From: Polyangiaceae bacterium
GTDB lineage: Bacteria; Myxococcota_A; Polyangia; Polyangiales; Polyangiaceae
DNA length: 64,000 nt
Assembly: GCA_033763455.1 (NCBI GenBank)
Contig: JANRKO010000023.1
Span: forward strand, 96,001-160,000
Direction of reading: 5' to 3'
Within the stretch, counting starts at the first letter, position 1, and every line of letters begins with the position of its first letter. The position numbers and the translations under genes are program-made. Positions 22,602-32,966 of the stretch are shown piece by piece. The notes under the pieces are model-generated. The model had not been told where the DNA came from, did not search any database, and saw only the letters and a program-made list of their open reading frames with translations.

Positions 22602-25187
22602 TCACGCCGGAACGAGCGCCCCTTGCCAGACGTTTTCGCTGATACTTGCGTTGGTCCCTGCCGCGAGTTTCCAACCAGCAGGAGCCGTGAGCTTTGCCCG
22701 AGCACCCACGGGAAGCCGCACATGAACAACCACCTCTGTGCCTTGCTTCAGCCACTCTACCGATAACTCACCGCGAATGGTCTTCAGCGTAGCTTTGGCC
22801 GTATCGAGGCCTGGCACCGGGTGCGGGCGCACCACAAAAGCGTCCCCGGGTTCGGCACTCGGATCGTCCAAGATCCCCACTAGGCGCGAGTAAAACCAAG
22901 CGTCTACAGCGCCCAACATACAGTGATTGTGGGAATTCATGCCGCCGCCAGTTTCATTTTCCCAGCGCTCCCACATGGTGGTGGCGCCGTTCTCGAGCAT
23001 ATAGCCCCAAGAAGGATATTCTTTGCGCTGCACCAAAGCCCACGCAAGATCTGCTCGACCGAGATCCGTCAAGACTTCCAACAAATACTTGGTGCACACG
23101 TTACCCGTCGTGAGATGCCCGCGGGCTTCAACGTCTGCGGTCAAACGCTGAAACACGCCTGGGCGGTGCTGTTCCGGCACCAAATCCATCCAGAGCGCGA
23201 GGGCGTTGCAGGCCTGCACGTTTTCGCCAAACGTGTGGGTGGACTCGTTGAAGTACTTCGCCTGAAGCGCATGGGTGAAGCGCTCGGCTTCGAGCGCGTA
23301 GACGTCAGCTTCGCCAACTTTGCCGAGCTCCCGAGCAATTTTTTCGAGCAAACGTGTGATGAAAATCAGATGCGCCGTCGAGATGAGCCCGCCAGGCGTG
23401 CCTGCGGAGAGACACGGGCTACCGGTTCCCACAATTGTGGGGAGGGCTGCCATGGAAAACGCGCGTGGTGGACACCAATCCCCATACCAAGAAGACTCCA
23501 GAATGCCGCCTTCAGATTCATTGGCAAGGCAACGCTGCCAACCCACCATCATCGACCAATATTCGTTCAAAATGTTGCGATCGCCGTAGTGGCGCCACAT
23601 GAGGTATGGGTACCAAACGGGGCACACACACACTGGATCGGCTCGTTTTTTCCCCCAATGCCAGGGCACTGTGTCGGGGATGGCACCGGTTACCGGATCC
23701 TGCACGCTGGCAAAATCTCGCAGCCACTTGGCCAAAAAGCGCACAGCCTGAAAGTTATGCACTAGTTGCTCGGCACGAGCGGTCTGATCGTTCAGCCAAC
23801 CTTGGCGCTCGGAACGCTGTGGACAGTCGGTGAGTACGCCAAGCTCATTCGATTTTTCGGTACGAACGATCATCTGGTGGATGGCGTTGGCCATGTCGTT
23901 GCTGGAGGTAAACACTCCACGTTCTGGAATATCGTTGCGCACTCTGCAGACAGTGAGAGCTTCCGGGCCGGCATTTCCAAGGCCTTCTACCTCGATGTAA
24001 CGAAAGCCATGATAGGTGAAGCGGGGCTCCCACACCTCTTGTCCGCCGCCCCGAGCGATGTACACATCCGCACAACGAGCCGCATAAAGATTATCCTGAT
24101 TTACGCTGCCATCTTCTTTGCGCGTTTCGCCGAACCTGAGCGTTACCTTGTGGCCTTCTGGCACGTTCAGCTTGAGACGACAATAACCGGTCATGTTGGT
24201 GCCGGCGTCGAACACATCGGCGCCATTCGGTAGGGTTAGCAGCTTTTTTGGGGTGCTTTCTTCCACCACGCGCATCGGTTCACCCAGATCGGGCACGAGC
24301 CTGCCTCCGGGCCCCGGCACGCGGTACACCATAGTCCAATAGTCTTCGCGATTCCCAAACGGTGCTTTCCAGTCCGCCGCCGGCACGCTCCAGCGCTTCA
24401 GCTCCAGCCGAGCATCGTGGTCTTCTCCGCGAAATAGGCCATCCGTCGTCGCCGAGGCGCGCACAGCAAACGTGGACATATCCCAGTGCGAAGGTGTGGT
24501 GATGCGGCTGCCATCAACACACTCGACCTCTAGCCGAAGCTTGAGAATAGGCCGGCCATACCAACCGTGGCCCACCACCACGGAAAGCACCGTTTCCGGC
24601 GACTCGATCAAGTGCGCGATGTCGTGGACAGTGTACGGCACGATTTGCTCAAAGTCCGTGGGGGGAGGATCGAGAACGCGATCCGAGATAGGGTTCCCGT
24701 TTAAGTACGCTCGGTAGAGGCCCAGACCTGCAATGTAGAGTCGCGCGCGGCGCACCTTAGCTTTGGGCTGGAAGGCATGACGGAAGAACAAGGCACGCCC
24801 AGGCCAGATCCCAGGAGCGCCCACCCAATCCGCCTCCCACTCAGCTTCGCTCAGGAGCCCCATCTCGAAGGTGGCAGCTGACGAGACCGACTCAACCCCT
24901 GCGGCATCTTTGACGTGAACCTGCCACCAACACTCCTCCCGGCTCACCAAAGCGCTTCCGCCGTACGTTACATGCGTGGTTCGGTTGGAAACAACCCAAC
25001 CGCTATCCCATTTGTCTGAAGCGCCACTTTCCAGAAGCTGTGCCGAAGATGCCACACGTACGCGGTAAGCGACCTGCGGCGCACCCACACACCAGGCAAA
25101 GCGAGGCGCTTGGGTGTGGAGGCCAAGAGGGTTCGTGGTGTACTCACAGGTGAGGTCAAACGGGGTTGACGAGGTCTGAGACGGCAT
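22602..25187 (-). CDS. Alpha-L-rhamnosidase-like glycoside hydrolase (GH78)
   Basis: ARLYIAGLG, FTYHGFRY, TDCPQRSERQGW, YGDW, GATTMWERW, MNSHNH. ATG 25187, no signal peptide. Confidence 0.93.
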   Translation of the reverse strand: MPSQTSSTPFDLTCEYTTNPLGLHTQAPRFAWCVGAPQVAYRVRVASSAQLLESGASDKWDSGWVVSNRTTHVTYGGSALVSREECWWQVHVKDAAGVESVSSAATFEMGLLSEAEWEADWVGAPGIWPGRALFFRHAFQPKAKVRRARLYIAGLGLYRAYLNGNPISDRVLDPPPTDFEQIVPYTVHDIAHLIESPETVLSVVVGHGWYGRPILKLRLEVECVDGSRITTPSHWDMSTFAVRASATTDGLFRGEDHDARLELKRWSVPAADWKAPFGNREDYWTMVYRVPGPGGRLVPDLGEPMRVVEESTPKKLLTLPNGADVFDAGTNMTGYCRLKLNVPEGHKVTLRFGETRKEDGSVNQDNLYAARCADVYIARGGGQEVWEPRFTYHGFRYIEVEGLGNAGPEALTVCRVRNDIPERGVFTSSNDMANAIHQMIVRTEKSNELGVLTDCPQRSERQGWLNDQTARAEQLVHNFQAVRFLAKWLRDFASVQDPVTGAIPDTVPWHWGKKRADPVCVCPVWYPYLMWRHYGDRNILNEYWSMMVGWQRCLANESEGGILESSWYGDWCPPRAFSMAALPTIVGTGSPCLSAGTPGGLISTAHLIFITRLLEKIARELGKVGEADVYALEAERFTHALQAKYFNESTHTFGENVQACNALALWMDLVPEQHRPGVFQRLTADVEARGHLTTGNVCTKYLLEVLTDLGRADLAWALVQRKEYPSWGYMLENGATTMWERWENETGGGMNSHNHCMLGAVDAWFYSRLVGILDDPSAEPGDAFVVRPHPVPGLDTAKATLKTIRGELSVEWLKQGTEVVVHVRLPVGARAKLTAPAGWKLAAGTNASISENVWQGALVPA

Positions 25188-25402
25188 GGTGCCGCCTGAT
25201 ACCACAGGCCACGCGCCTTGGGCTGCCCTGTAATTCGACGCGTGCTGGTTGCCTGAGCGGGGCGCATGGAGATCGAGAACCAGCCCACACGGCGAGCTGC
25301 CCCATCTCATTTTGTGCTATTTCTGGCCTCGAAATTCGGCCTTCCAGAACTCTCCAACCGGTCTGTGCATCAGGGGTCTGGGCAACGCCCGCGGGGTCCG
25401 AT

Positions 25403-26662
25403 ATGTCGGCAGCCATGAACGCTCTTCCGACCTCCGAAACGCGCACGAGCTTTCCGAAGAACAAGATCAAGGTCCTGCTCCTGGAGAACATTCATCCTAG
25501 CGCCCAAGCGCTCATTGAAGGCGATGGCCTGGAATGCGAGATGCGGAGCGCCGCGCTCGGAGAAGCGGAACTCATCGAAGCGCTGAATGACGTGCACATC
25601 CTCGGGATCCGCAGCAAGACTCAGGTGAGCAAGAAGGCTCTTGAGAGCGCTCGCCGCTTGCTCGCTGTCGGCTGTTTTTGCATTGGAACGAACCAGGTGG
25701 ATCTTGAGGCCGCCAAGCGACGCGGTATCGCGGTCTTCAACGCACCCTTTAGCAATACGCGCAGCGTCGCAGAGCTTGTGATGGGGGAGGTAATAGCTCT
25801 TTCCCGTCGGCTCGGCGACCGTTCGGGTGAGATGCACGCAGGGAAATGGAACAAGACCGCTAGCGGCTCCTTCGAGGTACGCGGCAAGACAATTGGCATT
25901 GTTGGGTATGGGCACATTGGCCGCCAAGTTGGTGTGTTGGCGGAAACGTTCGGGTTGAGCGTATTGTTTTACGACATCTCGCAGCAGCTCCCGATGGGTA
26001 ACAACCGCACTGTCGGTACACTCGACGAACTGCTCGAAAAGTCGGACTTTGTGACCCTCCACGTGCCGGCCACGCCGCTCACCAAAATGATGATAGGGCC
26101 CGAGCAGATCGCTAAGATGAAACGCGGCGCATGCCTCCTCAACCTGAGCCGGGGCAGTGTGGTTCAGATCGACGCGCTGGCGGCAGGCTTGCGTTCGAAA
26201 CACTTGGCGGGTGCCGCGATCGACGTATTTCCCGTAGAGCCAAAGAGCAATAACGATCCCTTTGAGTCCGAATTGCGCGGGTTGCCTAATGTCATCCTGA
26301 CGCCCCACGTCGGCGGCTCAACCCAAGAGGCACAGGAAGCGATTGGGCGCGAAGTGGCCAACGCTCTGTTGCGCTACCTCAACGAAGGGTCCACAGCCTC
26401 GGCGGTAAACATTCCCCAGGTAGAGCCGCCTCCGCTCTCGGGGAGACACCGCATCTTGAATCTGCACGCCAATGTCCCGGGCGTTCTTAGCAAGATCAAC
26501 AGTATTGTGGGTCAGACCAAGGCCAACGTGGAAAGCCAGATCCTGCAAACCGATCCCGACGTGGGGTATTTGGTGATGGACCTGAACCAAAGCGTTTCAG
26601 ACGAGGTGAAGGACCAAGTGGCGGCTCTCGACGCGAACATACGCACGCGCATCCTCTACTAG
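25403..26662 (+). CDS. serA: D-3-phosphoglycerate dehydrogenase (with ACT domain)
   Basis: GIRSKT, FCIGTNQV, NAPFSNTRSVAEL, GYGHIG, TPHVGGST, and ACT H.NVPGVL. Confidence 0.96.
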   Translation: MSAAMNALPTSETRTSFPKNKIKVLLLENIHPSAQALIEGDGLECEMRSAALGEAELIEALNDVHILGIRSKTQVSKKALESARRLLAVGCFCIGTNQVDLEAAKRRGIAVFNAPFSNTRSVAELVMGEVIALSRRLGDRSGEMHAGKWNKTASGSFEVRGKTIGIVGYGHIGRQVGVLAETFGLSVLFYDISQQLPMGNNRTVGTLDELLEKSDFVTLHVPATPLTKMMIGPEQIAKMKRGACLLNLSRGSVVQIDALAAGLRSKHLAGAAIDVFPVEPKSNNDPFESELRGLPNVILTPHVGGSTQEAQEAIGREVANALLRYLNEGSTASAVNIPQVEPPPLSGRHRILNLHANVPGVLSKINSIVGQTKANVESQILQTDPDVGYLVMDLNQSVSDEVKDQVAALDANIRTRILY

Positions 26663-26779: not shown

Positions 26780-27562
26780 CTAGCTCGAGAAGTAGGCGTC
26801 TACGGCGAGCTGGACGTCGCGTTGAACAACCGTCTTGCGCTCGTCTTTGGCCGCATTTCGGATGCTTTCGGTCGCGATACGTCGGAGATGTGCCGAAAGC
26901 GGGGCCAGGATCCCATCGGAGGTGCTCAAACCATGTGCCACCTTGACGTACTCCTTTAACTTGCTCACCACCAAGAGTACTTCTTGGGGTATCCCCGCTT
27001 CGTCAGCATCCTTGTGAAGCACCTCGCTACGGCGTGGTTTTACGACGGGCACCATGTCGCGATCGAGGAGCGTCTTTCTGCCATCGCTCTTGCTGAGCAC
27101 CACTGCCCGATTGAGCACCTCGCGCACGTGATCACTTAAGGTAGCAAACACGGCGTCGGCTACCCGCATCTGGGATTTTGCCGCAATGTAGTCCTTGAAG
27201 CGTTGCACCACGATAAGCGTGTCGCGAGGCCCTTTGCGTATACCTGCTTGCGCATCCATCTTCGCAGCTAACACTTCGGGATTAGTTGCTTTCTTGTGTT
27301 CTTCCTTTTGATCCATCCGGGCGCGCTCCTGCCCCATCTCGGCACGCCAAGCTTGCTGAGTTGGGCTGGTATCTTTAACGGCCCAGCCGTCGCGATGGTT
27401 GGCCTCTTCCCGATGTGCTTCCCAGCACGGCAAGGAACAGAAAACAAGAAATGTCCGCTTTCTATTGCACGTGGAAACGCTGCACCGAAAATGAGGTCCC
27501 TGAAATCCAACGGGTAACCTGCAACTGCTACAGGTGCGCCATGTTTCGGTGGAAAGCGTCAT
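26780..27562 (-). CDS. Bacterial histone: N-terminal Cys/His zinc finger plus two tandem histone folds (ZZ-histone type)
   Basis: Candidate zinc ligands C11,C14,C27,C32,C42,C46,H50,H56. Two mutually similar ~57-aa folds (aa 114-170, 194-250) end in RKTLLDRD and RKTVVQRD, the histone R-x6-D clamp. Confidence 0.88.
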   Translation of the reverse strand: MTLSTETWRTCSSCRLPVGFQGPHFRCSVSTCNRKRTFLVFCSLPCWEAHREEANHRDGWAVKDTSPTQQAWRAEMGQERARMDQKEEHKKATNPEVLAAKMDAQAGIRKGPRDTLIVVQRFKDYIAAKSQMRVADAVFATLSDHVREVLNRAVVLSKSDGRKTLLDRDMVPVVKPRRSEVLHKDADEAGIPQEVLLVVSKLKEYVKVAHGLSTSDGILAPLSAHLRRIATESIRNAAKDERKTVVQRDVQLAVDAYFSS

Positions 27563-27604
27563 AGATGATGAGCTCTGGCAACCAAGCTTCTTTACATCGA
27601 GGGG

Positions 27605-28072
27605 CTAATTCTCCGACTCTTGGATAGAAGACGCCTCAGGATTGCCCTTTTTTCCCTTCCCACGGCCGCCACCGCTCGGTTTTTTGGGAGCCACCTTTTC
27701 GTCCGTGGGGGCCTCGCCAATCTGCAGCTCGCATTCGCCGAAGACCACTTGGCTTTTGCCCGCCTCACCCGCGAGGCGAACCTCCAGCGTTTTGGCCTTT
27801 ACCACGGTGTTGTCGCGCACAGCTCCTCCGAGCCGAATTGTGTCGGCCTCCAGATCACCAGAAACCTCACCTTCGGACTCGAGTGAGGTGACCCGAACCT
27901 TGCCGTGAACTGCGCCAGTTGAACTAACGCGCAGCGCGGGAGCCGAAAGCTCACCTTCGATCCGACCATGCGCCAAGATGTCCACCTTGGAATTGAGCTT
28001 GCCTGAGAACTCGCTGCCCGCTTCGACAATGGTTTGTCGAACTTGAGTTGAGGTTCCGTTTTCGTCATTCAT
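27605..28072 (-). CDS. Bactofilin (polymer-forming cytoskeletal protein)
   Basis: TIVEAGSEFSGKL...ILAHGRIEGEL....LRVSSTGAVHGKV...GEVSGDL beta-helix pattern, basic C-terminal tail, GAAGGAG RBS. Confidence 0.82.
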   Translation of the reverse strand: MNDENGTSTQVRQTIVEAGSEFSGKLNSKVDILAHGRIEGELSAPALRVSSTGAVHGKVRVTSLESEGEVSGDLEADTIRLGGAVRDNTVVKAKTLEVRLAGEAGKSQVVFGECELQIGEAPTDEKVAPKKPSGGGRGKGKKGNPEASSIQESEN

Positions 28073-28088
28073 GATTGCAATCTCCTTC

Positions 28089-29312
28089 TCAAGTTTGGGG
28101 GCGCAAAATCTTCACGCGTAGGCGGCAGCCGGGCTGAAAAGCAAATGCGGTAGGCTCCGGACCCTGCGCGATGGTGCCTACGAGCGCTCCCTTGGAGCTC
28201 ACTACGAGCGTGCGAGGACCAGAGATGCCCGGGCTTTCGCGTTCGAAGAATTTTCCGTGAATCGTGATGTTACCACCACCGGTGATCACGCATTCGCTGA
28301 GGACACCGGATTCGCCGACCACCAGATCGGTCCCATCTCCCAAGGAAATACTGCACTTTTCGAAGCGGCTGTCGATCTCCACGGCGGAGCCTTCACCGAA
28401 CTCCAGGGTCGCGTCGCGCAAAACGTCCCCCTCGCCGAAGTAGCGCGTTGCCGCAGCTCCTGGAGCTAGCTTGCCTGAAAGGAACGCCTCCACGTCTTCG
28501 CCGGAAATGCGCTTGGTGCCGTCCCCGCCACGGCTCCCATCCAACCACTCAGCAACCACGCCCTCAAAGTTGGCATCTTTGGTCGCCGTACCAAAGAGCT
28601 TGGCCCCCGTGATCGTGGCCGACAAGAGATTTGCGGTCCCGAGCTCGGCGTGTCTGAGGTCAGCACCCGTGAAGTTCGCTTGTTTGAAGACCCCCTTGCC
28701 GAGGCGAGCGTTTAAGAGCCCGGTGTTCGTAAAGTTGGCGCCCGGAGCCTGAGCCTCCTCAAGGTTGGCATCAGTGAGTGTTGCGGAAGAAAAATCGGCT
28801 TCCTCAAGATTGGCCGAAGAGAGATCGGCATTGCTGAGATCCGCCGAACGAAGCTTCGCGCCGCCGAGGTACGCTTCACCGAGCTCCGCATGCGTGAGGT
28901 TGGCGTTCGAGAGGTTGGCCTTACCGAGCTCAGCCGAAGCTAATTGGGCGCCGGAAAGCCGTGCTCCGACAAGATCTGCCTCGGCGAGGTTCGCTCCCTC
29001 AAGGGTAGCGCGATCAAGGTTCGCACCACGCAAATTGGCTTGCGTGAGGTTGGCGCCTTCAAAATCAGCCTTGCCTAAATCAGCGTCCGACAAATCGGCC
29101 AGCTTGAGGAATGCCTCCCGCAAGCTGGCGTTTCGGAGGCTTGCCCCGCGAAGCTTGGCCCCTTCGAGGTTGGCTCCGTCGAGATCAGCCCGTTTCAGAT
29201 CCGCTCCTTCAAGCGGCGCACCCGATAAGTCGAGACCCGCCAAATCGCAGCGCGCCAAGGGCTGCTTATTGCGGACGCGTTCGATCACTTCATCTCTTGA
29301 ATATTCCGCCAT
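28089..29312 (-). CDS. Pentapeptide-repeat protein with C-terminal bactofilin-like beta-helix
   Basis: About 47 uninterrupted LxxA(D/N) pentapeptides (aa ~19-253). C-terminus LVVGESGVL...ITIHGKF...LVVSSKGALVGTI. Confidence 0.88.
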   Translation of the reverse strand: MAEYSRDEVIERVRNKQPLARCDLAGLDLSGAPLEGADLKRADLDGANLEGAKLRGASLRNASLREAFLKLADLSDADLGKADFEGANLTQANLRGANLDRATLEGANLAEADLVGARLSGAQLASAELGKANLSNANLTHAELGEAYLGGAKLRSADLSNADLSSANLEEADFSSATLTDANLEEAQAPGANFTNTGLLNARLGKGVFKQANFTGADLRHAELGTANLLSATITGAKLFGTATKDANFEGVVAEWLDGSRGGDGTKRISGEDVEAFLSGKLAPGAAATRYFGEGDVLRDATLEFGEGSAVEIDSRFEKCSISLGDGTDLVVGESGVLSECVITGGGNITIHGKFFERESPGISGPRTLVVSSKGALVGTIAQGPEPTAFAFQPGCRLRVKILRPQT

Positions 29313-29331
29313 CGTCTATCTCGCCTCAGAC

Positions 29332-30636
29332 TTAAAGTTCGCGTTTATCGGTTTTGCTACGTTCCAGAAACTTCTCGAGCTCTTCCAACTTCCGTCCAAA
29401 TGGAAAACGCTCAAGGCGTGTGAGCAGGGCTGCTTCGCCCAACCTGGCCAGCACTACCTGAATTTCGAGCCAGCTATCGGTGCGGGCCTGGCGCAACTTC
29501 CGCTTCTCTTTAGAAACGTTGCGCGTCCAGTTGCGGCCCTGATCGTCAATTGCCTGATTGTGCCGCCGCAGCTTGCTCATAAGTTGCTCAAGCTGCGTGT
29601 ATTCAGCCTTTCGCGTCGGCTCGGGGATAATGGAGGCCGCGCGCCGCCGGTAACGCTCGAAGCGTTCGACGATTAGCCCACAAAGCTCTAGAGATAAGCC
29701 GGTAGTAGCGGCGATGTCCTCAGCTTTGGCGTCATAGAACATCTTGAGCTGGGTCAACCCAACCGCGTAAATCTTGTCGAGCTGCACCTTGTTTACGCCG
29801 GGCACCTGCCGGAGCACACTGTCAACGATGATGGGATCTCTTCGCCCGCTTTCTCGTTCGACGGAGAAGGCCTCGGGCAGTACCTTTGCCAGCTCCTGAT
29901 GGCAGTTCAAAAGCTGCGTGCGAGCTTCCTCCTCCAGCATGGCGCCACGGCCCTTTTGTGCTTGAAGCAGCTCTACAGAGAGAACTTCAAGCGGCCCCAC
30001 TAAATCCGAAAGCCCGAGCTTCTTCGCCGCTTCCAGCAACGAATTCACGGCCGGAGAGCAGATACGGATCCACTCTCGGCGAGCTTCACCGATCGTGAGC
30101 TCCACCATGAAATCGCGAAACGGGCCCAAGTGCTCCGCTGCTAGGTGAGCAAACAAGACTTCTACCTGCTGGCGATCCTGAGGCATCCCGGCAATGCCAT
30201 CACCCGACCCTGAAATTGCTTCAAAGTGCGGCTCAATGTCGTCGAAGCCTTTGTCGATCTCCGCGGAGGTAACGCGAGCCGGTGGCTGCGAAGCCCCGTT
30301 GGCAGCCGCGTCTGGTCTCGAAGTTGCATCCTGCACGCGACGAGCGCTGGGGGCGGGCGGAGCTGAAACTCTTGGCGGCGCGGCCACCGGAGCGATGGGC
30401 TCCGCTACTGCAGCCGAAGGCACTGCGCCTGGCGGTGGGGCCGAGGAGGGCGCCCAGGACGACATCGAGTGCTGCGCTTCAAGCGCCTGTTGATCCAGCG
30501 GCTGCGTATGCGCTCGCTGGTGAGGAGTGGCGGGAGCGCCGCCCGAAAGCGCCAATCCACACTTGACGCAAAACCTCGCGGTTAGCGGGCAAGTTGCCGA
30601 GCACTTGGGGCACTGTTGGGTATCTTCCATGGTCAT
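29332..30636 (-). CDS. Zinc-ribbon / Pro-rich linker / helical bundle / helix-hairpin-helix protein
   Basis: CPKC..RFCVKCG ribbon immediately after ATG 30636/30630, LRQVPGVNKVQLDKIYAVGL HhH, and C-terminal coiled coil. The ORF-track extension to 31026 is implausible. Confidence 0.8.
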   Translation of the reverse strand: MTMEDTQQCPKCSATCPLTARFCVKCGLALSGGAPATPHQRAHTQPLDQQALEAQHSMSSWAPSSAPPPGAVPSAAVAEPIAPVAAPPRVSAPPAPSARRVQDATSRPDAAANGASQPPARVTSAEIDKGFDDIEPHFEAISGSGDGIAGMPQDRQQVEVLFAHLAAEHLGPFRDFMVELTIGEARREWIRICSPAVNSLLEAAKKLGLSDLVGPLEVLSVELLQAQKGRGAMLEEEARTQLLNCHQELAKVLPEAFSVERESGRRDPIIVDSVLRQVPGVNKVQLDKIYAVGLTQLKMFYDAKAEDIAATTGLSLELCGLIVERFERYRRRAASIIPEPTRKAEYTQLEQLMSKLRRHNQAIDDQGRNWTRNVSKEKRKLRQARTDSWLEIQVVLARLGEAALLTRLERFPFGRKLEELEKFLERSKTDKREL

Positions 30637-30863
30637 TTCGCGGTGTGTTCGCCTGTTTGCTTCGGGGACGGCATGCCTTCCGTGAATGACTTGGAAGCAT
30701 AGTCCTTCCAATGGTCGCGCGTCTTCCCTGAACGGAGGGCGAGTAGGAGAAATCGCAGCTCTTCCCACGTTTGCGGAATTCGGCCCGACGTAATGGGCCC
30801 GCTGCGGATTCCCCGGTGTCTCCCAATTGACTCCCCCCACGAGCAGGCCAAACTCCCCACCAC

Positions 30864-31814
30864 GTGAATTCACCCTGCCTGTCGAGCACCGAAATAGCAG
30901 CCGGCAGCGCCAAGCTCGCCAATCTGAAGCTCGGTAGTAGCAGGCTCGCGCTCGGTACTGCAGGCCTCGGAGGGATTTGGCGGGGAAGTGATACCCATCA
31001 ATCGGTGGACGCGCTCCTCTATGCACTGGAGCACGGCCTCAACGTCTGGGACACGGCACCTGCGTATGGCGAAGCCGAAGCCTTGATCGGGAGCGCTCTC
31101 AAACAGTGGCACGGGCCGCTACCAGTTATCAGCACTAAGATCGGGCGCACACATGCCAACGCGCCGACGAGCGTCTCTTATCGGCCAGACACACTACGCG
31201 ATACATTGTCAAAAAGCCTCGACCGGCTTCACGTAGATTCTGTAGATCTGCTCTTCCTCCATGAGCCGGAGAAGCTTCTACCTGAGCAGCGCGGGCCCGC
31301 GTTGGACACGCTACTCGCCATGCAAAGTGAGGGCCTCACACGTTTGGTTGGGCTCGGCGGTGGCTGGGGTAGAGCTTGGGATTTCTTCTTGGACTCGGGA
31401 GCCATCTCCGCGGCAATCGTCTTTCTATCGCTTGATGCGTGCTGCCTCGATTCCGTCCCAAACGACGTACCTAAGCTCCAATCAAAGGGCGTCGCGATCT
31501 ATGGCGGCAGCCCTTTGCATATGGGTCTTCTAGCCTCTGCAAAGCCAAAGACCGCCCCTTGGGCGACGCCTCAGGCCCTGCTTGGCCTCAAAGGGTTGCA
31601 GATACTCTCGCACGAGCTGAACCAGAGCGTGATCGAGCTCGCTCATCGTTTCGTGTATTCCTTGCGCTGCATCGATCGTGTGCTTATCGGGCCAAGGAAC
31701 CTCGAAGAACTCAAATCTTCCTTGCAGGACTTCAGCAAGGGCGCTCTACCTCCGAACATATTTCACCAAATCTACGACCCAGCGCTAAAGCGCGCGGCGC
31801 CGAGAAATATCTAA
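30864..31814 (+). CDS. Aldo/keto reductase (sugar dehydrogenase-like)
   Basis: LALGTAGLGG, WDTAPAYG, ISTKIG, SLDRL..DLLFLHEP, VLIGPRN. Confidence 0.88.
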   Translation: MNSPCLSSTEIAAGSAKLANLKLGSSRLALGTAGLGGIWRGSDTHQSVDALLYALEHGLNVWDTAPAYGEAEALIGSALKQWHGPLPVISTKIGRTHANAPTSVSYRPDTLRDTLSKSLDRLHVDSVDLLFLHEPEKLLPEQRGPALDTLLAMQSEGLTRLVGLGGGWGRAWDFFLDSGAISAAIVFLSLDACCLDSVPNDVPKLQSKGVAIYGGSPLHMGLLASAKPKTAPWATPQALLGLKGLQILSHELNQSVIELAHRFVYSLRCIDRVLIGPRNLEELKSSLQDFSKGALPPNIFHQIYDPALKRAAPRNI

Positions 31815-31820
31815 GCCACC

Positions 31821-32966
31821 ATGCTCCAAGAATCCTTTCACATTGTCGAAGCTAGAGTACGCACCATCGCCCCCGTGAAACTCAAGCGAGCATTCTACGA
31901 TGGCACAGGGGGGCCATTCGACAGCTACGGCATGGGGATGCTCACACTCACAGATGCTGACGGCACCGTCGGGCACACACTCGGTGGTGGCAGTGAGCTG
32001 AATCAAATCTTCCCGCACTTGTTCACGTCCGCCCCCACCCGCTACGGGGAAATCTACCCCAAGATGTATTGGACGCTCCGCAACGCGGGCTTCCGAGGTC
32101 CCGCCATGGGTGCGCTCAGCTCGGTCGACCGCGCCCTGGCCGATATCGGAGCGAAACGAGCAAAAAAGCCGCTCCACCGCTACCTCGGCGCAACGAGAGA
32201 TTGGACGCATGCCTATGGCTCTGGCGGCAGCACGGCTCTTACCGAGGACGAATTGATAGAAGAGCTGCTCGGGTTCGCTGAAATGGGATTTACAACTGTC
32301 AAGATGAAGGTCGGCACCAACCTGGGCACAGAAATGCAACGCGACATCGCGCGCGTTAAAAACGTCCGAAAACATCTGGGAAAAGGCGTACGGCTCGCTG
32401 TCGATGCCAACCAAGCTTGGTCTAGCAAGCTAGCGCTACAGTTCATCAACTCGATCGCCGACTGCGACATCGCCTGGTTTGAAGAACCAGTGCACTCGGC
32501 TGATCTGATCGCGATTCGTGAGTTTTGTTCCGCTTCTCCGGTGCCCGCGGCGTTTGGCGAATCCGAACGCTCTTCGAAAGTGTACCCCTCACTCGTAGAA
32601 GCTGGCGTGAAACATTTGCAGCCTAATCCCCTTGCCTCCACGAGCATTCAGGAGTGGTTTGAGGTTAGGGATCTAGCGGTGAAACACCAACTGCCGATTT
32701 CTCTGCCGGGTCAGCCTCAAGTGGGCTGCGTCCTAGCAGCCGCCGCTCCCGAAACAACCCTCAGCGAAATCCTTTTTCCAGTATTGTGGGGTTTCCCTCA
32801 GTATTTTTCCAAGGAGCCAAAGCTAGAAAATGGTCGCTTCCTGTTGCCCAGCGATCCAGGCAACCCGCTTGAGGTGGATTTCGACTACCTCGAAGCGAAA
32901 GGGCTCATCCGTGAGGACACGATCACGCGCGAGGAAAACGTGCGAAACCTCAGCAAGAGTCCGTAA
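31821..32966 (+). CDS. Mandelate racemase/muconate lactonizing enzyme family (enolase superfamily) protein
   Basis: ALADIGAK....PLHRYLG, KMK, VDANQ, WFEEP, GES. Starts 6 bp after the AKR. Confidence 0.9.
   Translation: MLQESFHIVEARVRTIAPVKLKRAFYDGTGGPFDSYGMGMLTLTDADGTVGHTLGGGSELNQIFPHLFTSAPTRYGEIYPKMYWTLRNAGFRGPAMGALSSVDRALADIGAKRAKKPLHRYLGATRDWTHAYGSGGSTALTEDELIEELLGFAEMGFTTVKMKVGTNLGTEMQRDIARVKNVRKHLGKGVRLAVDANQAWSSKLALQFINSIADCDIAWFEEPVHSADLIAIREFCSASPVPAAFGESERSSKVYPSLVEAGVKHLQPNPLASTSIQEWFEVRDLAVKHQLPISLPGQPQVGCVLAAAAPETTLSEILFPVLWGFPQYFSKEPKLENGRFLLPSDPGNPLEVDFDYLEAKGLIREDTITREENVRNLSKSP

Follow-up and report, generated by a model that had tools for sequence, protein, structure and literature searches.

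Do four tightly packed genes, one of them for a bactofilin and another for a histone, encode a single machine that joins the bacterial cytoskeleton to chromatin, or are they neighbours of separate origin? The question is raised by a 64,000-nucleotide stretch of DNA from a Polyangiaceae bacterium (GenBank assembly GCA_033763455.1, a genome of 6.56 Mb in 92 contigs), positions 96,001 to 160,000 of contig JANRKO010000023.1, which is G000:C23:96001-160000 in our numbering and is called the window here. On its minus strand follow, in this order, a candidate adaptor protein with a zinc ribbon and helix-hairpin-helix (HhH) motifs (gene 1), a pentapeptide-repeat protein (PRP) with an additional C-terminal domain (gene 2), a divergent bactofilin (gene 3) and a histone doublet of the ZZ type (gene 4). 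The initial annotation described four co-directional genes that lie 19, 16 and 42 bp apart and have genes of the opposite strand on both sides, a description that the open reading frame (ORF) list and the sequence confirm, and it proposed that bactofilin polymers anchor or chaperone histone-bound DNA. The explanation that we consider probable is a different one: a three-gene bactofilin module conserved in Polyangia, downstream of which a ZZ-histone doublet of a published type has landed in one genus, where it probably shares the transcript of the module.

Conservation of the three-gene module and its linkage to the histone

The three genes upstream of the histone, hereafter the trio, are kept together well beyond the genus of the window. 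Among 41 relatives whose genomes were searched for the ZZ-histone and for gene 1, the gene 1 protein was matched in 13 (in one of them weakly) and the ZZ-histone in 18, and the order HhH protein, PRP, bactofilin is contiguous in eight other genera and in three sister species. A scan of species-representative genomes with an alignment of the gene 2 C-domain returned 213 relatives, and our locus figures refer to the best 80 of these 213: in 79 of the 80 loci the next gene after the PRP gene is a bactofilin gene, the sole exception ending at a contig edge, and in 70 a gene 1 homologue lies upstream. Among the titles of the source genomes are Polyangiaceae, Sorangium, Byssovorax, Labilithrix, Kofleriaceae, Nannocystineae and Minicystis rosea DSM 24000 (L082). 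A gene 1 homologue is missing from ten loci: three of them are truncated where the contig stops, six have a PRP that itself starts in a zinc ribbon and a linker, and one (L104) has neither; the ribbon borne by the PRP is 41-45% identical to that of gene 1 in the window. There are also natural single-chain proteins that fuse PRP, C-domain and bactofilin (P0022, P0028 and, weakly, P0010). No family other than these three is common to the trio loci, whose neighbours lie mostly on the opposite strand, and outside the window's genus no conserved neighbour was found beyond the trio. When 401 genomes were sampled evenly across the phylum, nine matched the C-domain and 118 the ZZ-histone. The trio is a conserved and apparently undescribed bactofilin module of soil myxobacteria in the class Polyangia; our literature search found no paper on it, nor any on a link between bactofilins and histones.

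Some trio loci are unusual in name or form. Full trios stand at L085, L080 and L090 in metagenome-assembled genomes (MAGs) titled Blastocatellia (Acidobacteria) and 'Clostridia', where mis-binning or horizontal transfer is possible, and one protein among the homologues bears an Acidobacteriota name. In a Byssovorax sp. MAG, a single frame of 1015 codons (L117:3442-6486, plus strand) spans both the gene 1 homologue and the PRP.

The histone is linked to the trio in the window's genus only. Among the histone loci of the relatives, the ZZ-histone and all three trio genes stand together in G001 and G002 alone, both of this genus, and in G003 the trio stops at one contig end and the histone opens another contig. 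None of the 14 histone loci from other genera, a few of them short, holds a trio gene, and in the genomes of these loci no bactofilin gene shares a contig with the histone, save one that lies 118 kb away in G016. Seen from the side of the trio, the fetched flanks of 77 loci of other lineages, 68 of which extend 1 kb or more and 54 of which extend 3 kb or more past the bactofilin gene, contain no ZZ-histone, and the only two of the best 80 trio loci that have one, L048 and L049, belong to the genus of the window. With all candidates scored, no ZZ-histone match came from five trio genomes of 96-99% completeness, and M. rosea yielded only a doubtful match of 69 residues. No neighbour of the histone gene is common to the 14 loci of other genera, which agrees with the remark, in the portion of the ZZ-histone paper drawn on here (PMC11390915), that alpha3 histones, the group that includes the ZZ histones, generally form single-gene operons. 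Because the histone adjoins the trio in one genus only, a four-part chromatin-cytoskeleton machine that anchors histone-bound DNA is not supported as a conserved system, and a missing linkage in related genomes was the first of the three findings that the initial annotation had named as speaking against it; what endures of the proposal that the four genes belong together is the block of the first three, which is kept across Polyangia.

Within the genus, the relation is closer. Gene 4 is the sole ZZ-histone match found there, and the gap between the bactofilin and histone genes, 42 bp in the window, is 12 bp in the sister species G001 and G002. Because the junction is tight, holds no terminator-like hairpin and lies between flanks whose synteny is kept in the genus, the histone is likely, or at the least plausibly, co-transcribed with the trio there. 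In the assemblies of two sister species, contigs break at this junction or just within the histone gene (the end of G002:C8, L034; the end of G003:C228 and the start of G003:C210, L046 and L022); strain variation or a local repeat could be the cause.

Architecture of the four proteins

The gene 1 product begins with a zinc ribbon (residues 5-30, approximately) that carries the pattern CPKC...CVKC, and continues through a disordered linker rich in Pro and Ala (about 36-147), a helical bundle (152-257), a RadA-type (HhH)2 domain (about 266-337) and a basic helical region (341-433) with a net charge of +8. In an AlphaFold2 (AF2) model built on a 25-row alignment, with a mean predicted local distance difference test score (pLDDT) of 80.8, a small beta unit is modelled with confidence over residues 1-30, its ribbon reaching about 94, residues 36-147 fall below 50, and residues 152-433 are all helical. 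The Pfam models for zinc ribbons (Zn_Ribbon_1) score at most 18.8 bits, under their cut-offs, and the ribbon aligns with the N-terminal ribbons of related proteins. Pfam is also sub-threshold for the HhH part (HHH_5 at 16-17 bits, 17.1 against a cut-off of 27); the family profile matches the N-terminal domain of RadA (2bke, E 3.7e-7) and Rad51 (1pzn, E 8.4e-4), and Foldseek with the gene 1 model returns a local match to RadA (probability 1.00, 54 columns, root-mean-square deviation 1.9 Å) together with the HhH of UvrC. The protein has two HhH motifs homologous to the N-terminal domain of RadA/Rad51. Outside them, Foldseek and VIA-align give generic helical bundles only, with Z at most 11.9, under the noise level for helical folds, and for residues 151-257 and 341-434 neither tool gave a fold match above noise.

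What stands at the N-terminus of gene 1 differs between lineages: its orthologues start either with a zinc ribbon or with peptides such as MSIFSKLF, MGIFSRLF and MSFLSRLFGRKKK. Starts of the MSxFSK(LF) type were seen at L067, L080, L085, L087, L090, L093, L100, L103, L105-L107, L109, L111, L113, L114, L116 and L121-L123, and also in the A2 alignment. The consensus for membrane targeting of bactofilins, as it appears in the part of the source used here, is MFSKKKK (PMC12448750), and the gene 1 peptides resemble it, as if such a sequence were carried by the adaptor instead of the bactofilin.

Gene 2 is the best-conserved member of the trio, at 48-89% identity. Its repeats score 181 bits against PF00805 (cut-off 20.2) and form, in the AF2 model, a regular beta-helix over residues 15-255 or so (pLDDT 93.4), about 48 pentapeptide units long; this repeat domain is acidic, with a net charge of -12 and a pI of 4.7. 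The C-domain that follows (about 285-407, some 120 residues) is highly conserved. Foldseek with the whole gene 2 model returned pentapeptide proteins only; the matches in the Protein Data Bank (PDB), namely HetL, MfpA and Qnr, are confined to the repeat part, the best being HetL and designed solenoids. In the AF2 model, short strands recur in the C-domain about every 18 residues, with a pLDDT near 90, and the Atlas model for residues 281-407 can be superposed on a 100% PF04519 cluster (TM-score 0.77/0.74 over 109 residues). The C-domain is thus predicted to adopt the triangular beta-helix fold of bactofilins.

Gene 3 is a bactofilin by its PF04519 score (45.8 bits against a cut-off of 27.9, over profile positions 1-88 of 98), and its orthologues in the relatives also pass that cut-off. 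It has an acidic N-terminus, no membrane peptide of the MFSK type there, and a tail rich in Lys and Gly (residues 121-155, with six K and one R), and it scores lowest among the five bactofilin loci of the genome. The others are a canonical tandem of three genes (G000:C33:150148-151120) and a lone one (G000:C87:18952-19242), an arrangement like that of BacNOP and BacM in M. xanthus. With such a tandem and a lone gene elsewhere in the genome, the trio bactofilin is a fifth, divergent paralogue.

Gene 4 combines a ZZ zinc finger (residues 11-56), a linker and two histone folds (about 111-175 and 190-255). Fold 2 scores 26.5 bits against Pfam CBFD_NFYB_HMF (PF00808, cut-off 21.4) and matches the Bdellovibrio histone HBb chain 8cmp (E 1.3e-4), the protein has an NCBIfam histone match too, and fold 1 shares 32% identity with fold 2 (E 9e-13). 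An alignment of 34 sequences shows no variation in the zinc ligands C11, C14, C27, C32, C42, C46, H50 and H56, and their spacing is that of D0LYE7 except in the second Cys pair, which is CxxxC here and CxC there. Both folds carry the RKT...D motif (GRKTLLDRD and ERKTVVQRD). ZZ histones, as the portion of Schwab et al. (2024; PMC11390915) drawn on here defines them, occur in Myxococcota and have an N-terminal finger that binds zinc at a C4 site and at a C2H2 site; gene 4 has this finger as well as a bacterial-dimer-like fold with RKT...D, and is a ZZ-histone by both sequence criteria. The doublet form comprises the window protein and 13 of 119 database matches, with lengths of 242-268 residues against roughly 150-230 for singlets, and all doublets are seemingly from metagenomes of the Polyangia type. 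The family is already published and the doublet is a little-described branch of it: the texts of the ZZ-histone paper (PMC11390915) and of a 2026 review of double histone folds (PMC13088155) do not mention it in the parts used here, and their supplements may cover it. Fusing two histone folds may fix the dimer within a single chain.

Genomic setting of the locus

The coordinates of the genes, junctions and neighbours are collected in Table 1. Both flanks (22602-26662 and 30864-32966) consist of ordinary metabolic genes, with an alpha-L-rhamnosidase gene on the minus strand beyond the dehydrogenase and an enolase-superfamily gene beyond the aldo/keto reductase, and their synteny is kept within the window's genus only. 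Neither the ORF list nor the flank annotation contains a ParA or ParB gene in the locus, and the PADLOC defence models match none of the four proteins (0 families, E up to 0.01).

Table 1. Genes, junctions and neighbours of the locus, in positions of the window
Feature	Position	Strand	Source or remark
Gene 1, tether/adaptor protein, 434 aa	29332..30636	-	ORF list; ATG is the start chosen in the initial annotation
Gene 2, PRP with C-domain, 407 aa	28089..29312	-	ORF list
Gene 3, divergent bactofilin, 155 aa	27605..28072	-	ORF list
Gene 4, ZZ-type histone doublet, 260 aa	26780..27562	-	ORF list
Bactofilin-histone junction, 42 bp	27563..27604	-	sequence
Divergent intergenic region upstream of the gene block	30637..30863	.	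ORFs and sequence
2-Hydroxyacid dehydrogenase with ACT domain	25403-26662	+	convergent neighbour on the gene 4 side
Aldo/keto reductase	30864-31814	+	divergent neighbour on the gene 1 side

The promoter of the gene block must sit in the divergent intergenic region. A promoter scan of the locus returned 0 promoter-like sites, the sigma-70 consensus that it uses saying little for this phylum, and the ORF list has the reading frame of gene 1 open past the chosen ATG, up to a GTG at 31026. A terminator scan returned 4 terminator-like sites against 5.1 expected, none of them at a gene junction. Compared with shuffled controls, the gap between the bactofilin and histone genes folds more weakly (z +1.38) and the stretch that follows the histone gene no more strongly. 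A ribosome-binding site of good match, GAAGGAG, precedes the bactofilin gene; upstream of the histone ATG, inspection of the sequence found no evident site of this kind, just as had been noted at the outset.

Competing readings and comparison with known systems

The trio could work as follows. The bactofilin and the C-domain of gene 2 would join end to end, each by its C-terminal windings, and the acidic pentapeptide rods would in this way come to cap or decorate the bactofilin core. The adaptor would be gene 1: its helical/(HhH)2 body would grip the PRP-bactofilin assembly, and its flexible linker of about 110 residues would bear a swappable anchor, a zinc ribbon here and an MSxFSK(LF) peptide in other lineages. 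In the lineages with a ribbon-bearing PRP, the PRP would be joined directly to linker and anchor. A complex model of the bactofilin core with the gene 2 C-domain scored 0.89 when run three times, and the three controls scored 0.00; the runs share at least 97% of their contacts, the partner pLDDT is at least 91, and the modelled interface consists of the last windings of both chains. In the calibration of the complex tool, the mark is reached by 116 of 157 solved complexes and by 2 of 215 mismatched pairs. We count this model as support, not as proof, for a contact between the bactofilin and the C-domain, and together with the fusion proteins it backs a composite bactofilin scaffold whose N-terminal anchor can be swapped.

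Several points weigh against this account. The C-domain has no Pfam match even at E up to 10, and hhalign compares it with the trio bactofilin core at a probability of only 8%, so that, the Atlas superposition being positive, the label 'pentapeptide-bactofilin' is true for the predicted shape only, with predicted models on both sides of the likeness. Of the domain labels given initially, it is this 'bactofilin' on gene 2 that finds no sequence support; the HhH and zinc ribbon, the pentapeptide helix, the basic-tailed bactofilin and the histone doublet all stand. The complex model was built from 10-row alignments, which lie outside the calibration of the tool, and its score may echo the known stacking of bactofilin upon bactofilin. 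The long Byssovorax frame could be a natural fusion or an assembly artefact. Finally, the (HhH)2 domain of gene 1 could bind DNA, and 10 of the 12 trio genomes among the 41 relatives also hold a ZZ-histone, so that the trio may have a role at the nucleoid.

These last two points belong to a reading closer to the initial one, in which all four products form one chromatin-cytoskeleton system, at least in the genus of the window, where a DNA-tethering scaffold would have taken on the histone as its client. Such a system would account for the short distance between genes 3 and 4 (12 bp in G001 and G002, 42 bp in the window) and the lack of a terminator-like site between them, for the RadA-type (HhH)2 and basic C-terminal region of gene 1 together with the basic tail of the bactofilin, and for a gene 4 that is the genus's only ZZ-histone match; it would sit less easily with the lack of linkage in every trio and histone locus outside the genus, and with five near-complete trio genomes and M. 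rosea that have no convincing ZZ-histone. The ZZ-histone is found in 10 of 12 trio relatives against 8 of 29 relatives without the trio, a comparison that is not an independent test because the genomes are kin, and across the phylum sample it is far more widespread than the trio. Nor is the HhH body always there to hold DNA: in six HhH-less loci the zinc ribbon sits on the PRP itself, and because some lineages lose this body, DNA binding by the HhH is unlikely to be the core function. A link between bactofilins and the nucleoid does have a precedent, since in M. xanthus, according to the portion of Lin et al. (2017; PMC5703909) used here, the BacNOP-PadC scaffold organises and positions the proteins of chromosome segregation. 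On balance we regard the four-part system as unlikely. Its bolder form, in which the trio is a nucleoid-anchoring cytoskeleton across Polyangia and the operon capture of the histone reveals the cargo, histone-coated DNA on pentapeptide-capped bactofilin rods, is in our judgement quite unlikely, and for spore compaction, a role that had been suggested at the outset, the analysis gave no supporting result.

Two further readings leave the histone aside. The trio might tie the membrane to DNA, with the N-terminus of gene 1 at the membrane, its (HhH)2 domain on DNA and the PRP-bactofilin pair stiffening or clustering the whole. The N-terminal (HhH)2 domain of Rad51 binds DNA, and gene 1 has a homologous domain; (HhH)2 domains also mediate protein contacts. 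The resemblance of the MSxFSK-type N-termini to the bactofilin membrane-targeting sequence in the available part of PMC12448750 would fit a tether, but gene 1 of the window bears a zinc ribbon rather than an amphipathic peptide and the HhH body is dispensable in the lineages with a ribbon-bearing PRP, and a tether of this sort seems to us highly unlikely. Barely credible is the other reading, taken over from the initial annotation, that the pentapeptide protein mimics DNA as MfpA and Qnr do, acting on gyrase or topoisomerase with the bactofilin merely localising it. Its acidic repeat domain would suit a mimic, and pentapeptide proteins are commonly acidic. MfpA, Qnr and AlbG are among the Foldseek and NCBIfam matches, yet gene 2 falls under every curated NCBIfam equivalog cut-off, and far under those for Qnr (74.4 bits against 240) and MfpA (60.4 against 360); its best structural matches are HetL and the designed solenoids, no gene for a topoisomerase or an MfpB-like GTPase is conserved nearby, and no result in the analysis spoke for mimicry.

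The conserved Polyangia module, with a ZZ-histone doublet placed downstream of it in one genus, is thus the explanation that we favour. Bactofilins are widespread as scaffolds and few of their partners are known. A conserved partner with a cryptic bactofilin-like domain at its end would add a new means of building and addressing such scaffolds, as would an adaptor whose anchor is swapped between a zinc ribbon and a membrane-type peptide. The module can be tested, since Minicystis rosea DSM 24000 is a cultured carrier of the trio. For studies of bacterial chromatin the locus holds a caution: in one genome, the adjacency of a histone gene suggested a machine, and the relatives do not keep that adjacency.

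Among known systems, the histone is the most easily placed. With the ZZ histones of PMC11390915, as described in the portion used here with an example from Haliangium ochraceum, it shares the ZZ finger, the bacterial-dimer-like fold and RKT...D; it differs in having two folds per chain where the described form has one, and in abutting an operon where the published genes are usually single-gene operons. The PRP shares the right-handed quadrilateral beta-helix of HetL, MfpA and Qnr (PDB 3du1, 2bm4 and 2xtw), to which it adds a bactofilin-like C-domain of 120 residues and an obligate pairing with a bactofilin gene. With canonical bactofilins such as Caulobacter BacA, whose type of polymer recruits clients according to the part of PMC12448750 drawn on here, the trio bactofilin has in common the beta-helical PF04519 core and unstructured tails; unlike them it has no MFSK-type N-terminus, and it is the adaptor that bears an MFSK-like peptide in some lineages. 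The closest system is BacNOP-PadC (PMC5703909, in the portion used here), like the trio a bactofilin scaffold from myxobacteria whose dedicated adaptor is encoded next to it. BacNOP has three bactofilins in its operon whereas the trio has a single divergent one, and in place of the ParB-like PadC, a domain of which type is absent from this locus, the trio has a Zn-ribbon/(HhH)2 protein as its candidate adaptor and, as the partner of its bactofilin, a pentapeptide-repeat protein with a bactofilin-like end.

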